This document shows positions 1 to 20,922 of a stretch of 64,000 bases of DNA, one piece after another. The stretch covers positions 32,001 to 96,000 of the IMG/VR virus record IMGVR_UViG_3300044624_001054. One strand, written 5' to 3'. Positions within the stretch are counted from its first letter, which is position 1; every line of letters begins with the position of its first letter. A program made the translations under genes and the position numbers. The stretch is from a virus. Below the pieces are notes generated by a model. The model saw only the letters and a program-made list of their open reading frames with translations. It did not search any database and was not told the origin of the DNA.

Positions 1-51
1 CGCTGAACGAGTTCATCCGTAAGTACGCTAAGACCTTGGTGGAGGTGTAAC

Positions 52-495
52 ATGATTGACCCTAGCATGACTGACATTCATCCTTACCCGCCAACTATGC
101 AGGAGTTGGAGTTGCGGGTCATCGAACTGAATACAGAGATCAACCGTCTGACTTCAGAGGTAGAGGCTATACAGAGTGACCGTGACTACTGGAGGGGCCA
201 GACGAACTATCGTCAGGCCCAGATTGACGGTCTTGAGTCATATCTCAAGGAGAACTTTGACTACATTGATGAGAATGTGACGCAGGAACTTGTTGATATC
301 TTCTCTCTTACTATCACCAGGGACTATGATGTGACAATCACCGTCACATTCTCTGGTGTTGTTACTGCTCCTCTCAATTTCGATATGGATAGCCTTGAGG
401 ATTCTCTGAATGCTAGTCTTGAGGCATCCTACTACGGAGATGTAGAGGCAGACTTCTCAGAGGATCATATGGAGATTGACTGGACAGAGAGTTAG
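52..495 (+). CDS. Hypothetical protein, N-terminal coiled coil and very acidic C-terminus
   Basis: 147-aa ORF preceded by a GGAGG RBS. Confidence 0.75.
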   Translation: MIDPSMTDIHPYPPTMQELELRVIELNTEINRLTSEVEAIQSDRDYWRGQTNYRQAQIDGLESYLKENFDYIDENVTQELVDIFSLTITRDYDVTITVTFSGVVTAPLNFDMDSLEDSLNASLEASYYGDVEADFSEDHMEIDWTES

Positions 496-527
496 GCAGC
501 GGTGGTATCCTAACTACGCCTCCGCCC

Positions 528-563
528 TGCAGACCTGAGCATGTCTTGCATAATAAACTGCTC
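528..563 (+). ncRNA. tRNA-leader pseudoknot motif, copy 1
   Basis: Stem AGAC/GTCT around loop CTGAGCAT; loop GAGCA pairs with TGCTC (559-563) after AAAC; ends 3 nt before tRNA-Glu. Confidence 0.75.
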
Positions 564-566
564 ACG

Positions 567-639
567 GCTCCCATCGTCTAGAGGCCAAGGACGCCGCCCT
601 TTCAAGGCGGTAGCACGGGTTCGAATCCCGTTGGGAGTA
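567..639 (+). tRNA. tRNA-Glu(TTC)
   Basis: Acceptor GCTCCCA/TGGGAGT, anticodon arm CCGCC-CT TTC AA-GGCGG, T loop GTTCGAATC; CCA not encoded. Confidence 0.95.
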
Positions 640-642
640 CAA

Positions 643-704
643 CCCCTGGAGAGAATGTGCGGAATCCGCCACCAACCCCACCATTCCGCTTCCCTCTCCA
701 GGGG
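643..704 (+). other. Long hairpin directly 3' of tRNA-Glu
   Basis: CCCCTGGAGAG/CTCTCCAGGGG plus GCGGAAT/ATTCCGC, with a C/A-rich loop. Confidence 0.7.
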
Positions 705-711
705 CCTAGTC

Positions 712-755
712 GGGCGGGGGGAAGTTGACGGTCTCCTTCCCCCTGCCTTGTTTTA
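712..755 (+). terminator. Rho-independent terminator
   Basis: GGCGGGGGGAAG...CTTCCCCCTGCC followed by TTGTTTT. Confidence 0.7.
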
Positions 756-860
756 TCGGCCCGGCCCGAAAAATTTAATCTGTCAAGCATTTACGATCTC
801 TCTTTTACGATCACGGGAATTTGTTACCAGAAATTTATCTAAATAATCTGCTAGATATTC

Positions 861-889
861 TTGAGACTGTCAGACCTAGGGTGTATAGT
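861..889 (+). promoter_or_regulatory. SigA-type promoter with internal TGTCAGACC box
   Basis: TTGAGA-N17-TATAGT, upstream of an AAGGAG RBS and the DUF932 gene. Confidence 0.65.
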
Positions 890-923
890 TCTTCTATAAG
901 TTCAATCAACTAAGGAGATACAT

Positions 924-1919
924 ATGGCACACGCAGTAGAGGTTGGCGCTAACGGAGAGCAGGCTTTTGCTTCCTTCCGCGAACCCGCTTGGCATGGTCT
1001 TGGTACCGTGTTCTTTGAGGAGAAGTCCACCCGCGAGATGCTGGATGCGGCTTACCTTTCTAACTGGGACGTTCGCCTTGAGGCCGTTCCTTACCCTTCC
1101 GACTACAATGTGATCACGCCTTCCTACATGGTACTGCGTGATAACCCCTTTGACCAGGGAACTGACGTTCTCGCTACCGTTGGCGAGCGTTACCACGTTC
1201 TTCAGAACGAGGATCTTTTCGACTTTGGTGATGCGCTGCTTGACGGTGGTCGCTGGGAGACCGCTGGCTCTATTCGCCAGGGTCGCGTTGTGTTCGGCTC
1301 GCTTGCGCTTGAGCGTGAGACTGTCCTTGATCCCAACGGCGTTTCGGATGTTGTGAAGTCCTACCTTCTCGTCCACACCTCGCATGACGGTTCTACCGCT
1401 GTGCAGGCTTCCATCACTCCCGTCCGCGTTGTGTGCCAGAACACTCTGAACATGGCTCTTCAGGGTGTGAAGCAGTCCTTCAAGATTCGTCACACGCAGA
1501 CTGTCGGTGGCAAGGTTATGGCTGCACGCGAGGCTCTTGCTCTCGCAAACACCTACCTGGATGAGTTCGACAAGGAGGCCAAGGCTCTCATCGCCAAGGA
1601 TATCACCAAGGCCAAGTTCGATGCCATCGTGCAGGCTGTCTACCCTCGCCCTGAGGCTGATGCCAAGGGTGCTGTCAAGAAGTGGGAGAACAAGGTCGAT
1701 CTCATTGAGGAGATTTGGACCTCTGACACCAACAACATGATCGCTACCACCGCGTGGGGTGCGTTCAATGCAATGACGGAGCGCCTTGACTGGTTCCGCA
1801 AGGGTCGTGGCGAGCGGGGTGCTGAGAATGTTCTCGCTGCTGCTAGTGGTTTCGATCCTGTCACCAATGCGGAGAAGGGTCGCATCCTGAAGGCTGTCAA
1901 GGAGATCGCTTTCGCGTAA
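924..1919 (+). CDS. DUF932 / TIGR03299-type phage-plasmid protein
   Basis: Motifs PAWHGLG, ETAGS, SHDGS, TPVRVVCQNTL, IRHT, TAWGAFNAMTE; strong RBS. Confidence 0.85.
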   Translation: MAHAVEVGANGEQAFASFREPAWHGLGTVFFEEKSTREMLDAAYLSNWDVRLEAVPYPSDYNVITPSYMVLRDNPFDQGTDVLATVGERYHVLQNEDLFDFGDALLDGGRWETAGSIRQGRVVFGSLALERETVLDPNGVSDVVKSYLLVHTSHDGSTAVQASITPVRVVCQNTLNMALQGVKQSFKIRHTQTVGGKVMAAREALALANTYLDEFDKEAKALIAKDITKAKFDAIVQAVYPRPEADAKGAVKKWENKVDLIEEIWTSDTNNMIATTAWGAFNAMTERLDWFRKGRGERGAENVLAAASGFDPVTNAEKGRILKAVKEIAFA

Positions 1920-1923
1920 TCAA

Positions 1924-1951
1924 ACATCCTGGGCATGATGTAAAACTGCCT
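1924..1951 (+). ncRNA. tRNA-leader pseudoknot motif, copy 2
   Basis: ACATC-CTGGGCAT-GATGT-AAAAC-TGCCT; ends 4 nt before a tRNA-like gene. Confidence 0.75.
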
Positions 1952-1955
1952 GCAC

Positions 1956-2023
1956 GCCACCCGCGCTGGGCGCAGACGAGATTCCAACCCTTGTCGTGCA
2001 GAGTTCGATTCTTTGGGGTGGTG
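1956..2023 (+). tRNA. Atypical tRNA-Trp(CCA)-like RNA with minimal D-arm
   Basis: Acceptor GCCACCC/GGGTGGT; D-arm GCGC-TGG-GCGC; stem GACGAG/CTTGTC with central CCA; T-arm CAGAG-TTCGATT-CTTTG. Confidence 0.65.
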
Positions 2024-2027
2024 CTTG

Positions 2028-2100
2028 GCACTTGTAGAGTAGCGGTTATCTCGCCACCCTGTCACGGTGGAGATCGTGGGTTCGAATCCCATCAGGTGCG
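2028..2100 (+). tRNA. tRNA-Asp(GTC)
   Basis: Acceptor GCACTTG/CAGGTGC, anticodon arm CCACC-CT GTC AC-GGTGG, T loop GTTCGAATC. Confidence 0.95.
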
Positions 2101-2191
2101 CTTGACAAATCTAAGAATTTGGGGCCGGGCCGTCCAAGAATATTCTAAGACTCTTTTACGATCTTCTTACGAAAGTCACAGGAATTTTCGC

Positions 2192-2220
2192 TGGAATATG
2201 TCAGACCCACATGCTACGCT
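2192..2220 (+). promoter_or_regulatory. Promoter with TGTCAGACC box and extended -10
   Basis: TGTCAGACC at 2199; TGcTACGCT at 2212-2220; same spacing as the 861-889 promoter. Confidence 0.55.
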
Positions 2221-2245
2221 TTATGTATTCGACAGAAGGAGCATT

Positions 2246-2458
2246 ATGAACATCTACGGCATAACAGAAGAAGATATGGCCTCTCCGACCTTTCCCAACG
2301 AGAATGATATTCTTGCATCTATCGTCAAGAACATGAAGGATATTCTAGATGGTGAGTGTGAGCGACCTGATATTGCTGCCCTTGCCGTGTCGATAGACTT
2401 CTTTGTCTTAGATCACTACATGCGTAATGGACGCATCCCTACTGCTTGGAGGAACTAA
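2246..2458 (+). CDS. Hypothetical protein
   Basis: ATG after an AGAAGGAG RBS; the longer track ORF from 1991 overlaps tRNAs. Confidence 0.7.
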   Translation: MNIYGITEEDMASPTFPNENDILASIVKNMKDILDGECERPDIAALAVSIDFFVLDHYMRNGRIPTAWRN

Positions 2459-2682
2459 TGGCAACCATCACATTCTCAGTAGAACTTATCTACGAGGGAA
2501 CTGGTCACTTCATGGATTTTGAATATGACTATGAGACTTGGGATGATATGGCCACCGAGGAAGCGGAAGCATTGGCTGACGATCTTGCTAGTGGTCGTAA
2601 CCCTGAGTTGTTCAATGAGATCATGGCTAACATTTCTATTGTCCCCACCGTTGAGAATGTGGTGGCTGATGAATCTGAATGA
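2458..2682 (+). CDS. Small acidic hypothetical protein
   Basis: TAATG coupling, GGAGG RBS. Confidence 0.7.
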   Translation: MATITFSVELIYEGTGHFMDFEYDYETWDDMATEEAEALADDLASGRNPELFNEIMANISIVPTVENVVADESE

Positions 2683-2989
2683 TGTTGAGACTGGTTGCTA
2701 CATTGACGGTAGTCATCGTGATTCCATCGAATTCTCTTTGCTAGTTATCGAAATGGCTCATGACTATGGATTTGAGTTGGATTGGGACCAGTTTGTCAAG
2801 GATGCCGCCAACATGCGCGATCCTGGTTACATGATGGAAGAGGACGAACTGAACGAGGTTCTAGATGCTATTGAATGGACGTATGAGGATGCGCTAGACT
2901 ATCTCAACATCAACACCCGCGAGCCTTTGATGTGGGTGGTAAGAGACCAGAGTTTGTTTCTTATGACATATGATGAGGCTGATGACTAA
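2669..2989 (+). CDS. Acidic hypothetical protein
   Basis: Start MNLNDVETG inside track ORF 2519..2989; operon packing. Confidence 0.7.
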   Translation: MNLNDVETGCYIDGSHRDSIEFSLLVIEMAHDYGFELDWDQFVKDAANMRDPGYMMEEDELNEVLDAIEWTYEDALDYLNINTREPLMWVVRDQSLFLMTYDEADD

Positions 2990-3054
2990 ACACCATAGTT
3001 ATATACTTTAGCAGGTATATCTATGCTAATTCACACAACTATGTATCTGGAGGA

Positions 3055-3264
3055 ATGATGCTAGCCAGTAATATGCTTACCAAAGATCAGATGCTAGAGC
3101 AGTATGAGGTTCTAGGATTTGCTTATGGCATGTGTGTAGTCAAGCGCATGTCTGATGGTGTGAAGGGGACATTGGATTTTGGAGATCATCCTATCCTCCG
3201 TCCCGAGGATTCTTCCAACCCGCTTGGCTATACTCGTTACTACTACAACTTTGTGGAGGCGTGA
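3055..3264 (+). CDS. Hypothetical protein
   Basis: GGAGG RBS; coupled to the next ORF. Confidence 0.65.
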   Translation: MMLASNMLTKDQMLEQYEVLGFAYGMCVVKRMSDGVKGTLDFGDHPILRPEDSSNPLGYTRYYYNFVEA

Positions 3265-3395
3265 TGAGTAACATTGTATGTTACTTCAATCCAGAATTCG
3301 CTGGTAAGTTTATTGCCAACTGGCTTGACCCCGCCATGTTTGACGACTATACTCTAGATATTGTTGATGATTGCCTAGTGCTTAGGGAGAAGTGA
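3264..3395 (+). CDS. 43-aa hypothetical protein (MSNIVCYF...)
   Basis: Hand-translated; TGATG coupling at both ends. Confidence 0.6.
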   Translation: MSNIVCYFNPEFAGKFIANWLDPAMFDDYTLDIVDDCLVLREK

Positions 3396-3526
3396 TGGAT
3401 GTTTCGGTAGAGGTTCAGAATGTTAGTTTCATTATTGACGCAGAGGATGAGAGCGAGGCTATCGCTAGGGTAGAGGAGTTTCTCCAGGAGTACGCCTGGG
3501 ACTGGACCCAGCCCTACGCGGGATAA
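3395..3526 (+). CDS. 43-aa acidic hypothetical protein (MDVSVEVQ...)
   Basis: Hand-translated; TGATG coupling, GGGAG RBS. Confidence 0.6.
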   Translation: MDVSVEVQNVSFIIDAEDESEAIARVEEFLQEYAWDWTQPYAG

Positions 3527-3529
3527 CTG

Positions 3530-3658
3530 ATGAAACACACATTCATTGTAACGGTAGAGTGCGAAGAAGCAGCAGACGCTTTGCTTGTAATGGGCGAGCG
3601 TTTGGACTATGATGAGGACTATGGATTCCCCTACTCAGTAGATTGGAAGTGGAAGTGA
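3530..3658 (+). CDS. 42-aa hypothetical protein (MKHTFIVT...)
   Basis: Hand-translated; fills the operon gap. Confidence 0.6.
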   Translation: MKHTFIVTVECEEAADALLVMGERLDYDEDYGFPYSVDWKWK

Positions 3659-3828
3659 AACAATATCGTATTGTCCTGCCCCTGGAAGTATGGGGAGAGT
3701 TTGAGGATGACGAGGATCATGAGTTTATCAAGGAAGTCCTAGGAGATAAGTTGGACGGACTCTTGATTTCTACCGACTACCTGTGGGATTATTGGAAAGA
3801 CGCCAAAGTCGAACCTATGGAGGGCTAA
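3655..3828 (+). CDS. Small acidic hypothetical protein
   Basis: GTGA overlap with the preceding stop. Confidence 0.6.
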   Translation: MKQYRIVLPLEVWGEFEDDEDHEFIKEVLGDKLDGLLISTDYLWDYWKDAKVEPMEG

Positions 3829-4181
3829 TGACTAATATCACCATGCACCTTACTGCTAACTTTTACCCGCCCATTCCCGCTGACATTCAGATGCGCGTGC
3901 AGGAGATTTTCGATGAGTTGCAGCGCGACTCCGATCCATATATTCTAGGCTGGGCAGACGTTCCCGAGAATTGGGACTATGACGTATCTGATGAGTCTGT
4001 GTTTGATCGCACCTATGAGTTGCCGAATGGCGCGGTAGTGACAGGACGTAGCCTACTTGATGATCTGCGCCTGTGGGATGCCCTGTGGTGGGACTGTGAT
4101 GAGCCTATGGACACTCTCGCAGACTACGAGCGTGAGCAGAAAGAATATGCAGGCCAACTATCATTTTGGACGGTGGAGTAA
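3828..4181 (+). CDS. Acidic, Trp-rich hypothetical protein
   Basis: TAATG coupling, GGAGG RBS. Confidence 0.7.
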   Translation: MTNITMHLTANFYPPIPADIQMRVQEIFDELQRDSDPYILGWADVPENWDYDVSDESVFDRTYELPNGAVVTGRSLLDDLRLWDALWWDCDEPMDTLADYEREQKEYAGQLSFWTVE

Positions 4182-4411
4182 TGAAGGTTAGATTTCTAGA
4201 GATTGACTGTGGACCAGGCGGTACAGTATGGGAGTTGCACGCTAACACCCATGAGCATCTTAGGACATATGACAGCGAGGCGGCTATGCTGAATGATGCT
4301 GCCCTACTTAGAATGGTCAATGTAGATTATAGATTCTACACTCAGGCTGAATATAACCTAGAGGTACAAGTAGAGATCATGACAGAGAATGGGGCATGGA
4401 ATGAACGATAG
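4181..4411 (+). CDS. Hypothetical protein
   Basis: TAATG coupling, GGAG RBS. Confidence 0.65.
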   Translation: MKVRFLEIDCGPGGTVWELHANTHEHLRTYDSEAAMLNDAALLRMVNVDYRFYTQAEYNLEVQVEIMTENGAWNER

Positions 4412-4655
4412 AGAGTATCTAAGAAGTTTGGGATTTGAGGTAGGTGATCGTGGTCGGTACTCTAAGGAGATGAAGGCTGCCCTTGCTACCCGCGACGGAG
4501 TAGATCCTGATGCCCCCGCTTCTGAGTATGGTGCTAATGATAGGTTCGCGGACGGTCGGTATCGTGTAGAGCGATCCAATGGTCTTCCAAGGACACCAGA
4601 CGTTCCAGGTATTGACTTTGGCCCTGGACTTGCGGTATCATCGACACGGAGGTAA
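4401..4655 (+). CDS. Lsr2-like DNA-binding domain protein
   Basis: REYLRSLGFEVGDRGRYSKEM matches the Lsr2 C-terminal RGR (AT-hook-like) pattern. Confidence 0.65.
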   Translation: MNDREYLRSLGFEVGDRGRYSKEMKAALATRDGVDPDAPASEYGANDRFADGRYRVERSNGLPRTPDVPGIDFGPGLAVSSTRR

Positions 4656-4658
4656 AAC

Positions 4659-4937
4659 ATGGAGGATAAGGTATCCAAACAGATATTGTCAGGCTTTGCA
4701 GATAGTAGGCTCAATCCCTCACATCTTGCATGGCTTGTCAAGTTGCATACAACGCCACAGATCGACAATATGCTAAAGGAGTTCTTCTATTATTACACCG
4801 TGTTCCGCAATCAGGATACAGAAGAAAACGATGCACGATGGATGGGAGAGAAGTTGATGAATGACCTACGAAATCCAGACTATGATGGTCTAAGCAATCC
4901 TCCTCCCCCTGGTACACGCATAGTGTTTGCAGATTAG
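4659..4937 (+). CDS. Hypothetical protein
   Basis: GGAGGT RBS. Confidence 0.7.
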   Translation: MEDKVSKQILSGFADSRLNPSHLAWLVKLHTTPQIDNMLKEFFYYYTVFRNQDTEENDARWMGEKLMNDLRNPDYDGLSNPPPPGTRIVFAD

Positions 4938-4941
4938 ACAT

Positions 4942-4969
4942 ACTTCCTGGGCATGAAGTTAAACTGCCC
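4942..4969 (+). ncRNA. tRNA-leader pseudoknot motif, copy 3
   Basis: ACTTC-CTGGGCAT-GAAGT-TAAAC-TGCCC; ends 3 nt before tRNA-Tyr. Confidence 0.75.
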
Positions 4970-4972
4970 CTA

Positions 4973-5052
4973 GCCTCGCAGCCCCCAAGGTGGGGGAGCG
5001 GTCTGTAAAACCGTCGCCATTGGCACGCTTGGTTCGATTCCAAGGCGGGGCA
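4973..5052 (+). tRNA. tRNA-Tyr(GTA)
   Basis: Acceptor GCCTCGC/GCGGGGC, anticodon arm GCGGT-CT GTA AA-ACCGT, long variable arm, T-arm CTTGG-TTCGATT-CCAAG. Confidence 0.88.
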
Positions 5053-5080
5053 CTTGACAAATCGATTCGGGCGTGCCGGG

Positions 5081-5555
5081 CTATCCACAAGTTATCCACA
5101 ATACCTTTACGAACCTATTACGAACGATCACGGAAAAATCACAGGAATTTTTAAGACATTAAATTTTATTAATGTCACACACATATGATAGGATGGCACA
5201 TGGAAATTTTATTATGTATTATCATAGGGCTATTATGGCTAGGATTATTCACTCCACCGCCCCGCGATTAGCGGCGGCGGTGTGTCATTTATATCCCCTA
5301 TATAACTATGTAAACAATAGGGTAAATACCTATCATTTCTGATAATATATCTTCAACTTTTGATAACTTTTATGTCAAAAGTATTACGATCCGACCATAA
5401 AAAATCACTGGAATTTTTGGCATATTCGCCTATATTTATCTAATTAGACATTACGAACGCGCCTAAAAAATCACTGGAATATTTACCTTAAAATATTCTC
5501 ATATACACGAAGTTATCCACAGGTTATCCACCATTACGATCCCGCCTGTGGATAT
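5081..5555. promoter_or_regulatory. Cluster of DnaA-box-like 9-mers; candidate origin or DnaA-binding region
   Basis: TTATCCACA at 5092 and 5513; one-mismatch boxes at 5081, 5524 and 5547 (reverse). Confidence 0.6.
5200..5271 (+). CDS. 23-aa hydrophobic micropeptide, probably leaderless
   Basis: MEILLCIIIGLLWLGLFTPPPRD; ATG lies 5 nt after a TGaTAGGAT -10 element. Confidence 0.55.
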   Translation: MEILLCIIIGLLWLGLFTPPPRD

Positions 5556-5817
5556 CTCTCCATATAACAGTAAGATAACATTCAATTCTATAAATGCGTA
5601 CGTTTTACATAACATCAATGTCTTTTGGTAGAAAGTGGATCAAGGTGGGACCTTGTGGGGACCACCTTTGACGCTATATCAGGCATGTAGGGGAATGTTT
5701 TTTATAGGTAAATATACGGGATAGCCCATATGTTTATTCCTATGTCTTATTACTAGTGTTGTTATTATATAGGTAAGGGGGAAGACTCCCACTACTACCG
5801 CCGCCAAAATTATTGGC

Positions 5818-5943
5818 TCATGCCTTCCCATATTTAGTCTTGCAAGGATCGCACCATTTGGTGGATACGAACTTCTTGTCTACACTCCATTTAATCATGC
5901 AGGAATACTCAGCATGTTTGGTAGCAGTACAGGTACTAGTCAT
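5818..5943 (-). CDS. 41-aa Cys-containing hypothetical protein
   Basis: Hand-translated MTSTCTAT...WCDPCKTKYGKA. Confidence 0.45.
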   Translation of the reverse strand: MTSTCTATKHAEYSCMIKWSVDKKFVSTKWCDPCKTKYGKA

Positions 5944-6018
5944 GCAAAATCCTTAGTCTAAGATATTATCCATGTCTTCACAGATTTGTTCGAAATCATT
6001 CATGATGCTTCCAATCGT

Positions 6019-6144
6019 TCATGCTACTTCATTCTTAGTAGTTTCATCAAATGGTTCGTCATCGAACTCTATGTCAAAGTCTATGAGAGCATCAGCAATA
6101 TAATCAAGAAACTCTTCTACTCTATTTCTCAGATAGTCCATCAT
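6019..6144 (-). CDS. Small acidic hypothetical protein
   Basis: GGGAGG RBS before MMDYLRN. Confidence 0.55.
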   Translation of the reverse strand: MMDYLRNRVEEFLDYIADALIDFDIEFDDEPFDETTKNEVA

Positions 6145-6222
6145 TGTTCTTCCTCCCAAGACAAATATAGCATATTTCCCCATCCCAAGGAGGGCCATCC
6201 TCAAAGCAGTTATGTTCTTCCA

Positions 6223-6429
6223 TTACATTACAATATCATGGCGATGTGCTTCTAGCCACCGCTCCACTTTCCTATTCAGTCCCCACCACGACAGGGCATA
6301 GATTCGCTTCATGGGGTGTCCGCAGACCCAATCCCAATCGGGATAAATTTCTGCGTATTTCACTCCCATAAAGATCGAATGATTTACCCTGTTATATATT
6401 ACCTTGTACATATCTTCCCTGTTCATCAT
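6223..6429 (-). CDS. Hypothetical protein
   Basis: ORF track; start adjusted. Confidence 0.55.
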   Translation of the reverse strand: MMNREDMYKVIYNRVNHSIFMGVKYAEIYPDWDWVCGHPMKRIYALSWWGLNRKVERWLEAHRHDIVM

Positions 6430-6479
6430 TACCCCCAATAACATATTGTGCGGGTGTTTCTACTTTCGGCTTTCGATTT

Positions 6480-6650
6480 TTACTTTCCGCGATACTTGCT
6501 GCGAAGTGGTGGCTTTAGTCCAGCCTTTACACATTGTGCGTAGGCTTGCCCATACTTCTTCTCAGAGCCCTCGCCAGCCTTGCCGCCCGTCTGCTTCTTT
6601 ACGTCTTTGCTTGCAATCTCTAGATCCCTTAGAAGATCCTCGTTGTTCAT
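6480..6650 (-). CDS. 56-aa basic hypothetical protein
   Basis: Hand-translated MNNEDLL...YGQAYAQCVKAGLKPPLRSKYRGK. Confidence 0.55.
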   Translation of the reverse strand: MNNEDLLRDLEIASKDVKKQTGGKAGEGSEKKYGQAYAQCVKAGLKPPLRSKYRGK

Positions 6651-6822
6651 TAGTTTACCTTTCTAGATAAGTGGTCATATTTCTCTGCCGCCGCTATTGC
6701 AACCCTTGCCAGATCATACCAAGTTTTAGCATTTGTTTTATATGCATTCATCAATACACTTGCTATGTATTCTACCTTGTCTATAGGCTCCTGTAAAGAA
6801 ATGTCAGCCTCTTCATGGATGC

Positions 6823-7023
6823 TCATAACAACTTCTCCTTCAATTCTGCTATGAGTCCTTGTATGGTGTCACATGACTCATGCCGCCACCAAAGATCGCA
6901 ATAATCATTATGTGTAGTTTGACACATAAGGCTACGCAAATCTATGATTAATCTATTATACACCTCACGTTCAACAGATGAAGTGTCTAATTCCTCGGAG
7001 CATTGCCAGCATCTAACGCTCAT
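6823..7023 (-). CDS. Hypothetical protein with CxxC
   Basis: ORF track. Confidence 0.55.
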   Translation of the reverse strand: MSVRCWQCSEELDTSSVEREVYNRLIIDLRSLMCQTTHNDYCDLWWRHESCDTIQGLIAELKEKLL

Positions 7024-7191
7024 ATTTTTTATTTAAGTATTCATTGTAAGCGTTGATTGCTATTCCTGCATCAAGCATGGCGATCTCAGCCCAGTTCTTA
7101 CCATCGTCTGAGTTAATCCAGTCTGAATCATTATATCTTTTGGGGAACCATGACTTCATCAAGGCCTCCGCCACATGAGTTAAACCTGGCA

Positions 7192-7767
7192 TTAGATTTC
7201 CTTTAGTCCCTTTAAAGGTTTGCCTGCCTTAATATTAGCCATGTTAGAAAGAGTATTGGTAACAACTTCTAGCGTGGTAAGAACATTAATGTACATATCT
7301 TCTGGGTGCCAAGGGGTATCTGTGCCGCCGCCATAAGTATCGTCAAACGCTACACGAAGAATCTCAAAGAATTCTTCTGCAGTAACATAGTATGCCGTCC
7401 AGGGATAATTACTAAAAGAAACGCTGGACTCAGCCGTCTTGTTATTTTTCTGAATCTGAATATTATAATCATCAAACTTGTTTGTTGTAGTAGTTGATGA
7501 AGTAGTGTAGGTAACAGTAGGGTTCATGTCCATATCCTTTCGTAATGAATTCCAAATTAATGTAAGATCATCCGCCGAACACCAAAGTTCTTTAGACCCA
7601 CCGCTCCAAAGCGGCGTATTAAATTTTACTAGATAATCTCTGGAAGTACTTTTATTATCTCTTCCAGGAACAAATTTGATAACTGTCCCCCTATGATTTG
7701 TTTCAAGGGAGGGATTTTTAAAGTTTACAATATCTCCAGGCTTTGGGATATATTTATATTCAGTCAC
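7192..7767 (-). CDS. Hypothetical protein
   Basis: ORF track; AAGGAG RBS; GTGA overlap. Confidence 0.65.
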   Translation of the reverse strand: MTEYKYIPKPGDIVNFKNPSLETNHRGTVIKFVPGRDNKSTSRDYLVKFNTPLWSGGSKELWCSADDLTLIWNSLRKDMDMNPTVTYTTSSTTTTNKFDDYNIQIQKNNKTAESSVSFSNYPWTAYYVTAEEFFEILRVAFDDTYGGGTDTPWHPEDMYINVLTTLEVVTNTLSNMANIKAGKPLKGLKEI

Positions 7768-8246
7768 TTAAACTCCTTGTGTGTAGGCCAGTAGTAAGTG
7801 CATTTTCCTGGACAGCATACATACTCCTGGTAGATTTCATATTCTGCGCGATACTGTGGGTATAGGTCTGGGGCTTTTTCATATAGCCGACCTCGGTGGG
7901 TAGTAAGGACATGATGAAATGTATTGTTATCAAGCATCCATGAAGGTGCGCTAGTATCCGACCATACATTGCCATCGGCCATCCTTTGAATTTCATACCA
8001 GTTTTTTTCCCACTTATAATCTCGCCGCTGCATCTCCCTACGGATAGCATTTAGATAATAGTACAGAGTAATAGAGTGATTGTCAAACATTCTGACTGCT
8101 GGATGATTGCGCCAAGCGTTAGACTTAGACTCGCCAACTAAGATAGTCATAATCTGACGGCCTTCAAGGAGTTGTTTGACTAGACGTTTGGTATCTAGTT
8201 GTTGGGCAGTATAATCAAAGTCTGATTCTGGTAGAAATACCTGCAT
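7764..8246 (-). CDS. Pyrimidine-dimer DNA glycosylase / endonuclease V-like (MSMEG_6728-type) protein
   Basis: MQVFLP..LDTKRLVKQLLE..WRNHPAVRM..H..L..K.P..Y pattern. Confidence 0.75.
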   Translation of the reverse strand: MQVFLPESDFDYTAQQLDTKRLVKQLLEGRQIMTILVGESKSNAWRNHPAVRMFDNHSITLYYYLNAIRREMQRRDYKWEKNWYEIQRMADGNVWSDTSAPSWMLDNNTFHHVLTTHRGRLYEKAPDLYPQYRAEYEIYQEYVCCPGKCTYYWPTHKEFK

Positions 8247-8421
8247 ATCATGAATTACTTTCTCTAGTTGCTGCTGCAAGGGCTAATGTAGCAAACACCT
8301 GTGCGGCTGCATACATTCCAATTTCGGCAAAGTGCATAGCCTTCTTCTCGTACTCAGTACTGCGAGTCATTATACTTATCCTGAAACTTCATCTCAAAGT
8401 AGTCATCGATTCCGTCCATTA

Positions 8422-8877
8422 TTACTCCCATCCTGGAACTACTGTGGTTGGAATATTATTTTCTTGCCATAGTTTGATAATGCTGGGGTTGTCATCCCAC
8501 GCATGAATTATATCGTAGGCGTTACGGAGCGTGTCAAGCATATCTTTCTTGACCTCATAGTCTTTGCGATTGTCCTCGTCCCCGCGCATCATTAGCATAT
8601 CGCTAGGAACCTCATGCATTGCCAGCCACCAAGCAGTATGATTCCGCCACATATGCTTACGGGCTGTAACAACTAGTACCTCATGTCCTAGCATATGTGC
8701 CATCTGAGCAGCATTTACCACATGATCATGTGCAGGAACGTTTACAGACTCAGCATGGAACTTATTAAAGTGTTTGATGACTCTACGTTTTGTATTATCG
8801 TATTTAGTTAGATGATGACGAATGGATGACACATCTGCTAGGGTGCCATCCATATCAAATATGACTGCCGTTCTCAC
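8422..8877 (-). CDS. HAD phosphatase, polynucleotide kinase 3'-phosphatase-like
   Basis: FDMDGTL, VTAR, MR..DNRKD..VK, WDDNP motifs. Confidence 0.8.
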   Translation of the reverse strand: MRTAVIFDMDGTLADVSSIRHHLTKYDNTKRRVIKHFNKFHAESVNVPAHDHVVNAAQMAHMLGHEVLVVTARKHMWRNHTAWWLAMHEVPSDMLMMRGDEDNRKDYEVKKDMLDTLRNAYDIIHAWDDNPSIIKLWQENNIPTTVVPGWE

Positions 8878-9065
8878 AGCATCTCCTCATAGTCTGGGTG
8901 GTCTAGCGGTGTTGGGGCAGTAACGAGAGTACCACATTGGGCACATTCTGCGCTAGTTAGATAGCCACAAATATTATAATCTTCATCAAACGTAACACAT
9001 ACTTTTAGCAGCCAACTTCCACAATTAGGGCATTCTGGACTAGGCAAACCTCGTGCATCAAGCAT
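8874..9065 (-). CDS. Zinc-ribbon protein
   Basis: CPNC...CAQC. Confidence 0.65.
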   Translation of the reverse strand: MLDARGLPSPECPNCGSWLLKVCVTFDEDYNICGYLTSAECAQCGTLVTAPTPLDHPDYEEML

Positions 9066-9307
9066 CGATCACTTCTTTCGTATAGAAATTATACGGCGGA
9101 CATTACTAGGAGATTTATCCTCATCATCCCACAGCCATTCCCATGGGTTGATTTCATCACCATTATTCCAATCGAACATGGGGAGATAGGACTTCATAGA
9201 TACCTCCAATTAGCGAGATCTTTTATTATTTACTTGCCTTTTTTGTTTCATTAGACGTTCAATTTCTTCGTCTAGATCTTCTTCTTCATCGTAATCGTAA
9301 GTTGTGT

Positions 9308-10318
9308 TCATAATTGTAGCCACTCTGGATTATCCAGAGTCCATTTTACCGTTCTCTCTAAAGATTCTTCAAGTGATAGGGGTGCCTTCCACCCTGTACC
9401 AGCAATTTTAGCACCGTCCAAAGCATAACGCAAGTCATGTCCTGGACGAGATGAGTGGAAATCTACTAGTTCATAGTTTAATTCATTTCCAACAAAACTA
9501 GCAACCATTTGAGCCATCTCTAAATTATCCATCTCTCTCTCGCCAACAACATGGAATTTTTGAGGGGCCTGAGACTCTCCATAGACTGGCGTAGGCTGGT
9601 TCAGGGCATGGAGTAGGGCATCTGCCTGGTTCCTAGCATGAAGATAATATCTACTGCCAATCTGTCCAGTTGGAGAAGCATGGATAGCCATTTTATCTCC
9701 AGCCAAAACCTTCTTAATGGTCATAGGGATGAACTTCTCTGGGTCCTGCATCTCACCAATGATGTTCATGGTGTTGGTGATAATTAGAGGTACACCATAT
9801 GTCCTCCAATATGAATAGGCAATTGACTCTTGGGCAGCCTTAGATGCAGAGTATGGATTGCTTGGGAAGTACTGATCCATCCATTCACGGTGGGCATGGC
9901 CTACAGGAGCAGGGCCATAGACTTCATCAGTAGACACATGCAAAAACTTCTCAATGTCTGAGAATCTTGCCCACTCTAGCATATTACAAACTAGAGATAC
10001 ATTATTCTCAATGAAAGGGACTGGCTCTGTAATAGACCTATCAACATGCGAGTCGCTAGCAACGTTAAGAACATAGTCAATCTTGCCAATCTCATGAGAT
10101 AGGACAGGAGAGATAGGGGCAGTAAGGTCATGCTTAAGAACCTTTACCCTCTTAAAGTCATCATCGTATCCTGCCACCGCCAGACGAATTCTGTCTGTTA
10201 TTCCACGGTGTCGAAAAGATACCAAACAAACTACATTCCAGTCTGTGTTGGCAAGAATGTGACGCAATACATGGCTGCCAACAAATCCGCTAGCACCAGT
10301 TAGAAGTACAGTAGTCAT
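9308..10318 (-). CDS. rmlB: dTDP-glucose 4,6-dehydratase-like extended SDR
   Basis: TGASGFVG, SHVDRSI, STDEVYG, YSASK, PEKFIP, RPGHDLRYALD. Confidence 0.85.
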   Translation of the reverse strand: MTTVLLTGASGFVGSHVLRHILANTDWNVVCLVSFRHRGITDRIRLAVAGYDDDFKRVKVLKHDLTAPISPVLSHEIGKIDYVLNVASDSHVDRSITEPVPFIENNVSLVCNMLEWARFSDIEKFLHVSTDEVYGPAPVGHAHREWMDQYFPSNPYSASKAAQESIAYSYWRTYGVPLIITNTMNIIGEMQDPEKFIPMTIKKVLAGDKMAIHASPTGQIGSRYYLHARNQADALLHALNQPTPVYGESQAPQKFHVVGEREMDNLEMAQMVASFVGNELNYELVDFHSSRPGHDLRYALDGAKIAGTGWKAPLSLEESLERTVKWTLDNPEWLQL

Positions 10319-10372
10319 TAATTTCCAATCGTTTTCATTATTATGACATTATTCATAGCCATATGTCAATAC

Positions 10373-11239
10373 TTATATCCAGCCTTTAATGGCTCTTTTA
10401 ATTCCGTCTTCAAGGGAGATCTGAGGAGTATATACCTTAAGCATATTTGTGTTATCTGAAACTCTATACATAACTCCTACTGGTTCTGCTGGTAAGTGGC
10501 GAAAGGTTGGCTCATAGCCGACTATTTTTGCTACTAGTTCAGCAAATTCATTAAATGAAACTGCCTCAGAGTTGCCAAGATTTAGGGGCTGTAAGTAATC
10601 TTGAGTGATAGCGGCATCTACAGCCTTTACGATATCTATGATATGAATGAAATCACGAACTTGTGTTCCATCTCCCCAGATATCAAATGGATCTGCTCTG
10701 TCCACACCTCGCTTGATATAGGATGGAAAGGGGTAGGAAAGATCTTGATCTGTGCCGTATCCAGAGAAAGGTCTAAATACATGAACCTTAATCCCTTCTG
10801 CTTGAGCAAACTGAGCAAGATATTCTCCCGTTAATTTTGCCCAACCATAAGTAAGGTCTGGGTTAGATACGTTTGTTAGATCTATATCTGATTCTTTTAG
10901 TTTAATATTAGACCCAGAAGTCTGCAATTTAATTGGATAGGCAGCGGAACTAGAGAAGTATACAACTCTTCCTGGGCGAGTAAGAAGCACCCATTGGAAG
11001 AAATCACTATCTATTGCTAGATCTGTTGCAACACTAAGAGGATTGCCTTCAATAGTTTTCCTGCCGCCTACTATCGCGGCTAAATGAATTACAAGATCAT
11101 AATACTCTCTGTTTACTTTAAAGAAATCTCTACAGTCATTACCACTTTTGATATCAATAATTGTTAGATCATGATCTTTATAGTGCATCTGGAAATATTT
11201 TCCAACAAACCCCTCACCACCAGTAATTAGTATCTTCAC
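10373..11239 (-). CDS. NAD-dependent sugar epimerase/dehydratase
   Basis: TGGEGFVG, HLAA, SSSAAY, YGWAK, WGDGTQVRDFIH. Confidence 0.88.
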   Translation of the reverse strand: MKILITGGEGFVGKYFQMHYKDHDLTIIDIKSGNDCRDFFKVNREYYDLVIHLAAIVGGRKTIEGNPLSVATDLAIDSDFFQWVLLTRPGRVVYFSSSAAYPIKLQTSGSNIKLKESDIDLTNVSNPDLTYGWAKLTGEYLAQFAQAEGIKVHVFRPFSGYGTDQDLSYPFPSYIKRGVDRADPFDIWGDGTQVRDFIHIIDIVKAVDAAITQDYLQPLNLGNSEAVSFNEFAELVAKIVGYEPTFRHLPAEPVGVMYRVSDNTNMLKVYTPQISLEDGIKRAIKGWI

Positions 11240-11895
11240 ATATCTACCTTAAACTTATTTAATTCATCTGCAATGTTGTACATAAGATACTGCTCCCAAG
11301 CAATTTTGTCATTATCATTCATGGCAGCGCTGTTAACTTCTTTATAAAGTTCATCTGCATTAGATTTACCTACAGAATAATGCATATGTTCTATGGTTAC
11401 GTCTGAGTAATACTGTAGTGTATTAAGTCTACGACCTAACTCCATCCAGAAATTATCTAAATAAAGATGTTTCATCTTTGGCGGAGCCATGTAGCCTAGA
11501 GTTCTAATAATATTAGAGTCCAGCATAGCGGCTGTAGCAAGACGCTCTCCCTGAATTAAATCATTTCCATAAGAAACAGTATTCTTCTTAGCATGACGCA
11601 TGAAGATTTTGTCCCAGCCTGAAGTTCTAATTCTATGATCATCGCCCATGAATGTAATGTAGTCGTACTGATCGGAGTACTTATTGGCAACCAAATTTAG
11701 CGTTCCATTCATTCCTTTTCTATCATTTACTTCCCAGATTACATCGTCATACCGCTCTGAATAATTTTGTGCATCATCAGAATCGATGGCAAAACATAGG
11801 GTGGTTTGATCTGAAGTATTCTGGACAAAGGAATCATAGAATTCCGCTGCATTATGTGGTCGCGATCTTGTTGGAACTATTAACAGGTTTTTCAT
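11236..11895 (-). CDS. Glycosyltransferase, GT-A/family 2-like
   Basis: IVPTRSR N-terminus, FMGDD (DxD-like), LYLDN..IEHMH. Confidence 0.75.
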   Translation of the reverse strand: MKNLLIVPTRSRPHNAAEFYDSFVQNTSDQTTLCFAIDSDDAQNYSERYDDVIWEVNDRKGMNGTLNLVANKYSDQYDYITFMGDDHRIRTSGWDKIFMRHAKKNTVSYGNDLIQGERLATAAMLDSNIIRTLGYMAPPKMKHLYLDNFWMELGRRLNTLQYYSDVTIEHMHYSVGKSNADELYKEVNSAAMNDNDKIAWEQYLMYNIADELNKFKVDM

Positions 11896-12680
11896 TAATA
11901 TCCTAACTTCTTCTTTTCATTTTCAGTAGACGACCAAGTATGAGTATTCTTATAGAAATCATACTCTTCTTCCGTCATCGGTTGCTTTTCCCACCAACCC
12001 ATGTGGCGACAGGTAAATCTCCCAGCAATTCTAATTGCACTTGTATTACATGTCATTCTACCAGGGACATGATCTATTTCTTCAAGGAATTTATCTCTAT
12101 TATAGAGAGAAAATGTCGTATCAATCGGGGCGGCGTACAAATCGTCTACCTCTGGTAACTGATCAACCTTTCTAGACCAGTAACTTCTTTCCCATAGATC
12201 CACTTGATTGGGATTAAAAAATCTTTCTCTTTCTTCTGGTGTGTCAATGTCTATTGCGAGGCCAACCTTTGACACGCCGTACATATCAACGATCCTTCTC
12301 ATTTTATCAATTGCATTATGAGGCATTTGCTCGTTGAATAATAAATCTGGATCTGTCACGATGAAATACTTGGGCATCCGTGAACAGATATCTTTATTTT
12401 CTGTGTAGTATCTTGGGCCATGGTTTTCTGACCAACGAACTACATGATATTTTTGTGATAGTTTTTCTAATAAATCTATCATTGGCGGGTAAGATGAATT
12501 ATTATCGCATATGATAATATTCGTCCACCCACGACTCTCTAGTTGATCAATCATAGACTTAAGATACGTTGGTGCATTGAACGTTGGGATAATAATAGGT
12601 ACATCATCTGGAATAAGTGTTGATGAATCATTATCTTTCTGGTATTCCAGCGCAACCCTAATATCTTCATACATCGGCAT
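11895..12680 (-). CDS. Glycosyltransferase family 2-like
   Basis: IIIPTFN, ICDNNS, VTDPD. Confidence 0.75.
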   Translation of the reverse strand: MPMYEDIRVALEYQKDNDSSTLIPDDVPIIIPTFNAPTYLKSMIDQLESRGWTNIIICDNNSSYPPMIDLLEKLSQKYHVVRWSENHGPRYYTENKDICSRMPKYFIVTDPDLLFNEQMPHNAIDKMRRIVDMYGVSKVGLAIDIDTPEERERFFNPNQVDLWERSYWSRKVDQLPEVDDLYAAPIDTTFSLYNRDKFLEEIDHVPGRMTCNTSAIRIAGRFTCRHMGWWEKQPMTEEEYDFYKNTHTWSSTENEKKKLGY

Positions 12681-20837: not shown

Positions 20838-20838
20838 G

Positions 20839-20910
20839 CTGGCCTGGTAGGATTCGAACCTACAACCCATCGGTTAACAGCCGATTGCGCTGCCATTGCG
20901 CCACAGACCA
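20839..20910 (-). tRNA. tRNA-Asn(GTT)
   Basis: Acceptor TGGTCTG/CAGGCCA, anticodon arm ATCGG-CT GTT AA-CCGAT, T loop GTTCGAATC. Confidence 0.93.
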
Positions 20911-20922
20911 CTACTTAAAACG

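Follow-up and report, generated by a model that had tools for sequence, protein, structure and literature searches.

Pseudoknots and tRNAs in the early region

In the 64,000-nucleotide stretch of viral DNA analyzed here (the window), the early transcription units are all ordered promoter, ORF(s), pseudoknot, and tRNA(s). The first pseudoknot copy follows a 147-aa ORF of unassigned family (52–495, plus strand; no Pfam match), the stop codon of which (493–495) lies 35 nt before the copy. It occupies positions 531–563 of the plus strand: the P1 strands AGAC (531–534) and GTCT (543–546) enclose the loop CTGAGCAT (535–542), and a 12-nt linker (547–558) with AAAC at its 3′ end leads to the 3′ strand of P2, TGCTC (559–563), which pairs with GAGCA. 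The gene for tRNA-Glu(UUC) begins 3 nt further on (567–640, plus strand; 63.3 bits with the Rfam tRNA model).

The next unit has a sigma-70-like promoter (861–889, plus strand; TTGAGA-17-TATAGT, matching at 10 of 12 positions in the promoter scan), with TGTCAGACC within its spacer. Its 331-aa DUF932 ORF (924–1919, plus strand; Pfam PF06067, 176 bits) has approximately 56% identity to Streptomyces phage proteins and ends in a stop codon (1917–1919) 4 nt before the second copy (1924–1951, plus strand), which consists of P1 ACATC (1924–1928) and GATGT (1937–1941), the loop CTGGGCAT (1929–1936), the linker AAAAC, and the 3′ strand of P2, TGCCT (1947–1951). A non-canonical tRNA-like cloverleaf with CCA in a 9-nt anticodon loop starts 4 nt after this copy (1956–2022, plus strand), and tRNA-Asp(GUC) (2028–2101, plus strand; Rfam, 64.3 bits) comes second in this terminal tRNA unit. 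The cloverleaf had originally been described as a Trp-like tRNA. It is the minimum-free-energy fold of its sequence (−27.1 kcal/mol, with a z-score of only −1.2), but neither ARAGORN nor Rfam called it a tRNA.

An operon of small ORFs follows, with a probable promoter at 2190–2222 (plus strand), the hexamers of which were read by eye and not called by the promoter scan; the spacer motif TGTCAGACC recurs in it at 2199–2207, and the window contains two occurrences of this motif versus 0.2 expected. A 92-aa ORF (4659–4937, plus strand; no Pfam match) closes the operon, and its stop codon (4935–4937) precedes the third copy (4942–4969, plus strand) by 4 nt. This copy again has the loop CTGGGCAT (4947–4954), here between P1 strands ACTTC (4942–4946) and GAAGT (4955–4959), followed by the linker TAAAC and the P2 strand TGCCC (4965–4969). 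The gene for tRNA-Tyr(GUA) (4973–5053, plus strand) begins 3 nt later and, like those for tRNA-Glu and tRNA-Asp, was called by both ARAGORN and Rfam.

Reading of the sequence thus confirmed all three copies of the original prediction, together with their loops, AAAC linkers, P2 pairing, and gaps of 3, 4, and 3 nt to the downstream tRNA or cloverleaf. A fourth copy, composed of GCGAAC, CTGGACAT, GTTCGC, TAAAAC, and TGTCC, was found at genome positions 31299–31329, 702 nt 5′ of the window start, with tRNA-Leu 84 nt downstream of it. The four copies of this genome scored 29–42 bits with the covariance model (E-values of 4e-8 to 1e-12), and the next match scored 15.5 bits; copy 1 had 29 bits (4e-8, and 3e-7 in a second search), copy 2 had 41.8 bits, and copy 3 had 41.6 bits. 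The octamer CTGRGCAT by itself was not significant (three found versus 4.5 expected), so the significance belongs to the whole motif. The prediction had also placed a copy at every early-region tRNA unit. This holds for the plus-strand early region but no further, because copies are missing from the Gln-Asn unit (20838–20993 of the window, minus strand) and from the Ile-Arg-Ser cluster.

A large, uncatalogued family of phage pseudoknots

The element is an H-type pseudoknot of 28–33 nt, with a P1 of 4–6 bp, the loop CUGRRYAU, a linker ending in AAAC, and a 3′ UGYYY. Within it, L1 is CU, the 5-bp P2 is formed by GRRYA of the loop and the 3′ UGYYY, L3 is A-rich, and a one-base junction is mostly U (U in 103, A in 12, and C in 3 of 118 distinct covariance-model matches). 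Both helices covary strongly across the family, as had been proposed from the copies in the window. In alignment A1, 92.9% of the cells pair, versus 74% after shuffling and 33–43% when the partner is slid. For P2, 584 of 590 cells pair over the 118 matches, which were collected with a covariance model built without P2, and 2,000 shuffles gave a mean of 535 and a maximum of 544. G-C is swapped for A-U at P2 position 2 (87:30) and position 3 (87:29), and position 3 also shows a C-G swap.

The covariance-model search that the original prediction had called for returned 127 matches in 85 sources, and more than 70 IMG/VR contigs with the pseudoknot are among the matches listed. Named phages have true copies: cultured carriers include phages of cyanobacteria, Firmicutes, and alphaproteobacteria, and further carriers are a Pasteurella phage (with a weaker P2), a microvirus, and crAss-like phages, of which cr7_1 has a true copy. 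Among the pattern matches in viral contigs, 58 of 120 had a gap of exactly 6 nt, and P1 was at least 4 bp in 46 of these 58. No family in Rfam 15 matches the pseudoknot, including preQ1-I, pistol, HDV-like, and freshwater-2, and we found no paper in the literature describing it in phages. These "gene-end" pseudoknots are not private to this phage but form a large uncatalogued family spread over many unrelated phages.

Copies share the strand of the genes, are always on the same strand within one locus, and never lie inside an ORF. Their common denominator is the end of an upstream ORF: in 89 of 97 clean copies, an ORF of at least 50 codons ends no more than 200 nt upstream. Spacers of 0–1 nt between the stop codon and P1 were never seen, and the counts rise sharply at 4 nt and peak at 4–6 nt (1, 1, 10, 10, 7, and 4 copies at 2, 3, 4, 5, 6, and 7 nt, respectively); in about one third of the copies, copy 1 among them, the stop codon and the knot are separated by more than 30 nt. 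A tRNA starts 3–9 nt downstream in only 11–12 of the 97 clean copies (∼12%), and none starts 10–75 nt downstream. The association with tRNAs is therefore real in this phage but not general, and the element is not dedicated to mRNA/tRNA junctions, as had been supposed. Most copies precede an unstructured leader and an ORF, a promoter, or a terminator. In the relatives of this phage, the next promoter or a terminator comes after the knot, which thus ends a unit. The distance to the next start codon varies from 8 to ∼300 nt, and the ribosome-binding site (RBS) is never part of the knot. Many copies lie 20–40 nt 5′ of the start codons of highly expressed genes, such as ssb in S-EIVl and scaffold/capsid genes in Lactobacillus and Staphylococcus phages.

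Resemblance to coremin and possible functions

Eukaryotic RNA viruses, beny- and cucumoviruses among them, carry the coremin motif (xrRNA-C), of which there is also a Watson-Crick variant, xrRNA-WCC (Dilweg, Olsthoorn et al.; PMC6546385, PMC10520033, PMC10321173). Folds of this type are reported to halt both Xrn1 and scanning ribosomes and to promote −1 frameshifting, the latter in a screen run in E. coli (PMC10520033, PMC10321173). Judged by sequence and fold, coremin and its variant are the closest known relative of the phage family. Matched to the phage column profile, the published coremin 20-mer obtains 25.3 bits, a score reached by none of 200,000 random 20-mers, and 18 of its 20 bases are the majority or invariant phage base. 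The top pairs of hp1, GUC/GAC, recur in the phages as the P1 seen most often (32 of 97 copies); both loops open with a pyrimidine (C) and close with A plus D, and the spacer GUUAAACU is identical. In both, the loop pairs with the bases directly after AAAC (by Watson-Crick pairs in xrRNA-WCC and the phages), and both are untranslated or intergenic. In contrast, the phage loop has 8 nt (CUGRRYAU) rather than YGAD or YGNNAD, and the phage P2 has five canonical pairs rather than three to four that are mostly non-canonical. The phage copies generally lack the hp2 needed for Xrn1 resistance, and their carrier is a DNA phage transcript in a bacterium, not an RNA genome. To our knowledge, bacteria have no Xrn1, and nuclease resistance of the phage knot is putative. 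The original prediction had missed this close resemblance to a plant-virus motif.

For the copies in this phage, the best-fitting mechanism is a 3′ cap after RNase P cleavage, and we tentatively suggest, as a possibility somewhat short of an even chance, that the knot is a compact roadblock capping the mRNA end that RNase P leaves. Each early mRNA would carry the pseudoknot at its tail, with a distance of 4 nt or more from the stop codon sparing a terminating ribosome the need to unwind it; the ribosomal helicase site lies at approximately +11, which fits the wall at a 4-nt spacer. RNase P would then cut at the tRNA 5′ end, 3–4 nt downstream of the knot, so that the message would terminate in the knot and the few nucleotides left behind it would offer 3′-to-5′ exonucleases too little to engage. 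RNase R, RNase II, and PNPase need a 3′ overhang of roughly 6–10 nt. The knot would thereby fix the end of the mRNA, shield it together with its stop codon, and hold decay back at the mRNA/tRNA boundary. The analysis establishes the structure, the family, its placement, and the likeness to coremin; the coupling to RNase P, the blocking of exonucleases, and the direction of protection are what we infer here. Several points count against a 3′ cap: the knot is thermodynamically modest (4–5 bp plus 5 bp), about one third of the copies (copy 1, at 35 nt, included) are over 30 nt away from the upstream stop codon, and the cap seems redundant where a terminator hairpin already lies 3′ of the knot (e.g., L048). 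Strong conservation of the loop and P2 sequences could instead reflect recognition by a specific factor, and coremin is documented against 5′-to-3′, not 3′-to-5′, enzymes, which would favor protection of the downstream RNA.

Such a 5′-to-3′ roadblock, a true phage xrRNA, would stop RNase J or 5′-end-dependent RNase E scanning from the decaying upstream message, protect the downstream tRNA precursor or cistron, and leave RNAs that begin at the knot. Coremin and its variant halt Xrn1 one nucleotide before hp1, a tRNA could act as the required hp2 in tRNA-adjacent copies, and the many copies shortly before highly expressed genes fit this reading. Full-length RNase J was found in the sampled cyanobacterial, Limosilactobacillus, and Phaeobacter lineage genomes, groups whose phages carry the motif, and 28 Gb of E. 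coli genomes contained no match. Nevertheless, we consider it rather unlikely. Coremin strictly needs hp2 for Xrn1 resistance, and hp2 is generally absent, since the 36 nt after the knot show no excess of structure over shuffled sequence (−3.26 vs. −3.07 kcal/mol); cr7_1 has a true copy, yet no full-length RNase J was seen in a Bacteroidaceae genome. Where only the next promoter comes after the knot, nothing downstream is left to protect, and 5′ protection would be superfluous for a tRNA, whose leader is taken off by RNase P. Alternatively, the knot might act on ribosomes, blocking those that read through the stop codon or slide after termination, and so keep the nascent tRNA folded and the next ribosome-binding site unoccluded. 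This would be independent of any host nuclease, and with the stop codon in the A site, the 4–6-nt spacer peak, with its sharp onset at 4 nt, would place the knot at the entrance for the mRNA. Scanning ribosomes stall at coremin-type knots, which also promote −1 frameshifting; the Watson-Crick variant has these effects even in the absence of hp2, and the frameshifting screen used E. coli. However, selection would be weak given how rarely ribosomes read through or slide, and the third of copies beyond 30 nt, as well as the microvirus and crAss-like copies far from an annotated upstream gene, speak against it. A recoding product is impossible in the window because in-frame stop codons follow. Overall, a stopper or insulator of ribosomes appears quite improbable.

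We regard as more doubtful still a specific binding site that regulates processing or expression, whether as an operator bound by a protein of the phage or the host (e.g., RNase P or an RNA chaperone) or as an aptamer for a small molecule. Phages of different phyla show no variation in the CU of L1, the A-U pair, AAAC, or the UG of P2, and the topology is preQ1-I-like, but there is no expression platform: the RBS lies outside the knot, at a widely varying start-codon distance. Moreover, the junction base varies, riboswitches do not usually occur in several copies per operon, Rfam aptamers gave no match, and a phage-specific protein fits poorly with the host range. A self-cleaving ribozyme, or an endonuclease signal parting the mRNA from the downstream RNA, is very unlikely indeed. 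As is typical of phage ribozymes, the element lies between genes and in multiple copies, the knot in L010 is ∼700 nt away from a twister-P1 ribozyme, and the order of P1, loop, AAA, and pseudoknot recalls the pistol core. However, all known self-cleaving classes are much longer than 28 nt, the searches gave no match to pistol, hammerhead, twister, hatchet, or HDV, no flanking dinucleotide is conserved as a possible cleavage site, and the RNase P cut is already only 3–4 nt away. Nothing supports the small ribozyme or aptamer that the original prediction had entertained.

Comparison with other known systems

The 3′-cap reading has a parallel in the MALAT1/MEN-beta module, with its triple-helical ENE, tRNA-like mascRNA, and RNase P. 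RNase P generates the 3′ end of MALAT1 by cutting beside a triple helix that protects it. In both systems a compact protective structure, putative in the phage, lies just 5′ of an RNase P substrate (3–4 nt away in the window), and tRNA 5′ processing would thus give the upstream RNA its mature 3′ end. The phage knot has no U-rich/A-rich triple helix engulfing the 3′ end, the tRNAs here are genuine, and most family copies have no downstream tRNA; the parallel is thus an analogy of logic only. REP and intercistronic stabilizer hairpins and T7 RNase III sites are likewise multi-copy, same-strand, intergenic elements that define and stabilize segments of polycistronic mRNAs. The phage element differs from these in being a pseudoknot with conserved sequence rather than a long hairpin, and in spanning phages of hosts from several phyla; we know of no nuclease that acts on it.

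Two other classes resemble the element in architecture. Luteovirus-type −1 frameshifting pseudoknots (e.g., BWYV) are also minimal H-type knots, with an S1 of 4–5 bp, an L1 of 1–2 nt, an A-rich L3 in the S1 minor groove, and a 4–8-nt spacer from the A-site codon. However, the phage knot is preceded by a stop codon, with no slippery heptamer and no continuing ORF, and in the window a tRNA comes next. The preQ1-I riboswitch (RF00522) shares the ∼30-nt H-type knot, the 5-bp P1, a short pyrimidine L1, and the A-rich L3, whereas the phage knot, which the Rfam model does not match, has neither a ligand-pairing C in L2 nor an RBS in P2, and occurs in several copies per operon.

Knot copies and their neighbors in the phage genome

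Direct reading of the sequence confirmed the three knot copies placed by the original prediction in the early region, at window 531–563, 1924–1951, and 4942–4969 on the plus strand (copies 1–3). Their P1 stems are 4–5 bp long and unrelated in sequence yet complementary (AGAC/GTCT, ACATC/GATGT, and ACTTC/GAAGT, respectively), and each is accompanied by the 8-nt loop CTGRGCAT and a linker with AAAC at its end. Loop positions 3–7 pair with a 5-nt segment to form P2 (GAGCA/TGCTC; GGGCA/TGCCT, with one G-U; and GGGCA/TGCCC). The copies begin 35, 4, and 4 nt after the stop codons of ORFs 52–495, 924–1919 (DUF932), and 4659–4937, and end 3, 4, and 3 nt before the 5′ ends of tRNA-Glu, a tRNA-like cloverleaf, and tRNA-Tyr, with ACG, GCAC, and CTA as the intervening tails. 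When the whole 106.6-kb IMG/VR virus record, whose bases 32001–96000 constitute the window, was searched with the covariance model described below, four strong copies and no other convincing match were obtained; a fifth match of 15.5 bits at window 26664–26694 (minus strand) was rejected because it had neither P1 nor P2. Copy 4 (genome 31299–31329, 702 nt before the window start) reads GCGAAC/CTGGACAT/GTTCGC/TAAAAC/TGTCC and shows a further compensatory change in P2. It lies 7–8 nt downstream of the stop codon of a 51-aa ORF and 84 nt upstream of tRNA-Leu, and the hairpin fold of this 84-nt spacer was not clearly better than that of shuffled sequence (z −1.8). No knot copy was found at the Ile-Arg-Ser unit or at the minus-strand Gln-Asn unit (window 20838–20993).

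The four copies belong to four consecutive units, each composed of a sigma-70-like promoter, one or more ORFs, a knot, and one or more tRNAs. Unit promoters of the sigma-70-like type were predicted at window 861–889 and ∼2190–2222 and at genome 31602–31631 (1805–1834 of the collected contig L122), with a TGTCAGACC-type spacer in each, and the −35 element of the next promoter begins immediately 3′ of tRNA-Asp and of tRNA-Tyr. Short motifs recur 3′ of each tRNA unit (window 770–900, 2101–2225, and 5054–5480), namely TTACGA(N), TCAC(A/G)GGAATTT, and TGTCAGACC, the last within the promoter spacers. They are shared with the related IMG/VR contigs L021, L076, L080, and L109, and probably serve this phage lineage as operators or promoter elements.

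Other features of the region were also recorded. The tRNA-like RNA between copy 2 and tRNA-Asp (window 1956–2022, plus strand) is 67 nt long. Its anticodon stem has 6 bp and carries a 9-nt loop containing CCA, and its D loop has 3 nt; its MFE fold is a cloverleaf, and neither ARAGORN nor Rfam called it. At window 5081–5555, a non-coding, repeat-rich stretch at the junction of the plus-strand early units and the minus-strand ORFs, five DnaA-box-like sites are clustered (TTATCCACA, ≤ 1 mismatch), including the only two perfect TTATCCACA matches in the 64-kb window; an origin or a site of DnaA titration could lie here. The GC content is 46–56% in the plus-strand early region (window 1–5000), 36–43% at 5001–12000, and 39.8% in the whole genome. 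A megablast search of cultured phages with window 1–6000 gave no match.

A covarying RNA family in phages

The knots form a genuine phage RNA family that covaries strongly and is uncatalogued. In the alignment of pattern-selected copies (A1), 92.9% of cells pair, compared with 74% after shuffling and 33–43% with slid partners, and covariation occurs in all five P1 pairs. Because A1 had been selected by pattern, the pairing was recounted on 118 distinct matches of a covariance model containing P1 only, all with 8-nt loops. In these matches, 584 of 590 P2 cells pair (shuffled mean 535, maximum 544 in 2000 shuffles), with compensatory changes at four of the five positions: position 2 is G-C in 87 matches, A-U in 30, and A-C in 1; position 3 is G-C in 87, A-U in 29, G-U in 1, and C-G in 1; and position 4 is C-G in 104, U-G in 10, and U-A in 3. 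The inner three pairs of P1 are formed in all 118 matches, with 2–5 pair types each, and the fourth pair in 100. Invariant or nearly so are L1 (CU), the A-U pair that closes P2, AAAC, and UG, and the junction base is U in 103 matches, A in 12, and C in 3. The architecture is that of a classical minimal H-type knot, with an L1 of 2 nt spanning the 5-bp P2 and an A-rich L3 of 4–6 nt spanning a P1 of 4–5 bp. Topology alone was rejected as evidence, since a generic H-type descriptor gave ∼1000 matches per strand in this genome and only the sequence-anchored family is specific; the octamer CTGRGCAT by itself was also set aside, its frequency being at chance level.

An exact-pattern scan of IMG/VR (CTGGRCAT, 5–16 nt, AAACTGYC) matched at least 117 contigs. 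Among the 120 matches listed, the gap was exactly 6 nt in 58, against a chance expectation of an even spread over 5–16 nt, and a P1 of ≥ 4 bp flanked 46 of the 58 gap-6 matches listed. The covariance model built from the 75 copies in A1 identified 127 copies, distributed over 85 sources and in many cases outside the original search pattern, with up to 8 copies in 13 kb and always on one strand within a contig. When three forms of the consensus were used as BLAST queries, true copies turned up in cultured phages, the carriers including phages of cyanobacteria (Nostoc phage NMeng1; Synechococcus phage S-EIVl, several copies), Firmicutes (Moorella phage MTATph1, five Lactobacillus phages, and Staphylococcus phage StB12), and an alphaproteobacterium (roseophage SIO1), as well as a Pasteurella phage with a weaker P2, the crAss-like phage cr7_1, and a pig-gut microvirus. 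Candidate copies, at the level of BLAST matches, occur in phages of Lentibacter, Celeribacter, and Paracoccus, in additional Staphylococcus phages, and in crAss-like cr124_1. In the 4.7-kb ssDNA microvirus Microviridae sp. MG945738, a true copy at 1064–1090 (CGTC/CTGGACAT/GACG/TGAAAC/TGTCC) is intergenic, 3′ of VP4, with an unannotated ribosome-binding site and ATG 13 nt further on.

Patterns of this kind gave mostly chance matches across 596 Gb of bacterial genomes: P1 was present in only ∼10 of 120, all in MAG contigs, so the motif is phage-enriched and not a bacterial housekeeping RNA. E. coli genomes totaling 28 Gb gave no match to the commonest form of the motif, and a plasmid search gave no true match. 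Among sampled bacterial genomes, the covariance model matched 1 of 151 Enterobacteriaceae, 4 of 151 Rhodobacteraceae, and 0 of 28 members of the Limosilactobacillus group, prophage-borne copies being too rare for such sampling; these matches were all marginal (24–27 bits) and unconvincing on inspection, and positive controls were recovered in 5 of 5 cases.

On a 170-kb phage contig (L010, IMGVR_UViG_3300045988_152521), the knot stands between a full-length ROOL RNA (319 bits) and tRNA-Leu in a region dense in non-coding RNAs (270–864, 1003–1036, and 1719–1784), and a twister-P1-like match of 47.6 bits, under the gathering score, occurs ∼700 nt downstream of the knot. Tandem knots occur 7 nt apart in an Anaerolineae MAG contig (L250, 637–702, minus strand) and ∼30 nt apart in contig L005 (9926–10027, plus strand), recalling the tandem xrRNAs of flaviviruses.

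Genomic context and candidate functions

Context was analyzed in 97 clean copies from a descriptor scan, which gave 105 raw matches on real sequence and 13 on reversed or complement-only sequence. An ORF of ≥ 50 codons ended ≤ 200 nt upstream of 89 of the 97 copies, and no copy overlapped an ORF. The spacer between the stop codon and P1 was never 0–1 nt; spacers of 2–9 nt occurred in 1, 1, 10, 10, 7, 4, 3, and 8 copies, respectively, followed by a long tail. The next start codon was usually 20–40 nt and sometimes > 200 nt from the knot. The 36 nt downstream of the knots are G-poor and show no extra structure (−3.26 vs. −3.07 kcal/mol when shuffled). In relatives of this phage (L021, L048, L076, L080, and L109), which have the promoter motifs TTACGA and TGTCAGACC in common with it, the knot precedes a tRNA or a terminator, or stands directly before the next promoter. 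The original prediction of a tRNA-specific element holds for the window, where a tRNA or tRNA-like unit follows all three copies after 3–4 nt, but not for the family, in which a tRNA lay 3–9 nt downstream of 11 of the 97 copies (∼12%) and none lay at 10–75 nt; the window's tRNA-like unit and the pseudo-tRNA of NMeng1 are further cases of this type. Based on these counts, the upstream gene end is the constant partner and the tRNA link characterizes a subset.

The reading toward which we lean, with somewhat less than even confidence, is that the knot may cap the 3′ end of the upstream message. The ribosomal helicase site is at about +11, which the 4-nt wall in the spacer distribution matches, so that a terminating ribosome would not need to unwind a knot located ≥ 4 nt beyond the stop codon. 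Where the gap to a tRNA is 3–9 nt, cleavage by RNase P would leave a tail below the length that 3′ exonucleases need. The short RNase P tail, the 4-nt wall, and the constant upstream ORF together favor the 3′ cap. Coremin, the xrRNA-C motif of plant and fungal RNA viruses, has a documented direction of 5′ to 3′, which keeps two rivals alive. One is an xrRNA-like block of RNase J or of scanning by RNase E, which we consider unlikely. RNase J was found in three sampled host lineages and was absent from a sampled enterobacterial genome, and because crAss-like cr7_1 carries a true knot whereas full-length RNase J was not found in a Bacteroidaceae genome, RNase J would not be the sole target. The other, a knot that stops ribosomes, seems more doubtful.

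Recognition of a specific ligand or protein is a little less probable again, and self-cleavage is very improbable. In Rfam 15, no family (including preQ1-I, pistol, twister, hammerhead, HDV-like/theta, and freshwater-2) overlapped the copies when window 1–6000 was searched at E up to 10 and seven other loci at E up to 5. A −1 programmed frameshift signal was rejected, as the combination of a slippery heptamer 5–9 nt upstream and a continuing −1-frame ORF was not found; copies 2 and 3 follow a stop codon by 4 nt and have tRNAs downstream, which leaves no such ORF.

It is possible, if short of probable, that phages own a nuclease- and ribosome-stopping RNA class, a minimal pseudoknot that has the coremin fold and much of the coremin sequence. 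No earlier element of this kind would then have been described for bacteria, and the class would account for defined, stable RNA ends in compact phage operons, including mRNA-tRNA co-transcripts. In tRNA-carrying phages, coupling to RNase P would mean that tRNA excision yields a pre-capped mRNA 3′ end. The retention of a 28-nt fold, absent from Rfam, across cyanobacterial, Firmicute, alphaproteobacterial, and Bacteroidales phages and a microvirus suggests a general, unrecognized layer of mRNA architecture. Such a class would connect the viruses of prokaryotes with xrRNA biology as known from eukaryotic viruses, whether the two share ancestry or have converged on a minimal roadblock fold, and would supply synthetic biology with a very small insulator or stabilizer part. 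Cultured carriers exist for direct study (phiEF-1.1, KC5a, StB12, SIO1, NMeng1, and S-EIVl).

Comparison with MALAT1 and coremin

Literature searches by loop sequence and topic found no description of the knot in phages; gp32-type pseudoknots are mentioned, and this motif is not, in a study of candidate structured phage RNAs (PMC10690425). The logic of the 3′ cap parallels MALAT1 3′-end formation, of which an RNase P-coupled knot would be the bacterial counterpart. As in MALAT1-type ends, an RNase P substrate lies directly 3′ of the knot in the window (gaps of 3, 4, and 3 nt), but the knot has no U-rich internal loop and its tails are ACG, GCAC, and CTA, unlike the U-rich ENE that forms a triple helix with an A-rich tail.

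Coremin (GUCCGAAGACGUUAAACUAC) comprises hp1, lp1 (consensus YGAD or YGNNAD), and a spacer; its resistance to Xrn1 requires hp2, and it also stops scanning ribosomes (PMC10520033). One 8-nt loop resisted Xrn1 in the same study, which gives no consensus for that loop. In a Watson-Crick variant, lp1 pairs with bases 3′ of AAAC, and this variant stimulates −1 frameshifting without hp2, in a screen done in E. coli (PMC10321173). Another report, PMC12397905, concerns class 3 xrRNAs and not coremin.

The phage consensus is GUC/CUGGGCAU/GAC/GUUAAAC/UGCCC, and has hp1, the first loop C, a loop A, the entire spacer, and the following U in common with coremin. Phage P1, like hp1, is a short hairpin of ∼4 bp with the spacer directly after it, and its top is GUC/GAC in 32 of 97 copies. 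The phage spacer likewise has the form (G)UUAAAC followed by U; AAAC and the next U were fixed in the descriptor behind the 97 copies, so their invariance rests on A1 (A22–A24, C25, and T26) and the model matches. The bases before AAAC are mostly G, U, and U/A, and the exact GUCC..GACGUUAAACU occurs in 11 of 97 copies. Loop-to-spacer pseudoknot pairing is also shared, as the P2 counts show. A comparison of coremin with the phage column profile scored 25.3 bits, and 200,000 random 20-mers all scored ≤ 13.2, with a mapping that was post hoc and some columns fixed by the descriptor. In contrast, the phage loop, CUGRRYA(U/A), is 8 nt long instead of 4 or 6; it resembles lp1 in its Y start and A-D end and differs in its second base, U, and in its length. 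No coremin-like hairpin was found in a search 3′ of the knots, so the stable hairpin immediately downstream (hp2) is missing; in the window, the tRNA 3–4 nt downstream might substitute for it. Because of the 8-nt loop, the longer canonical P2, the lack of hp2, and the bacterial hosts, we regard the element as a new variant that resembles coremin but lies outside its family.
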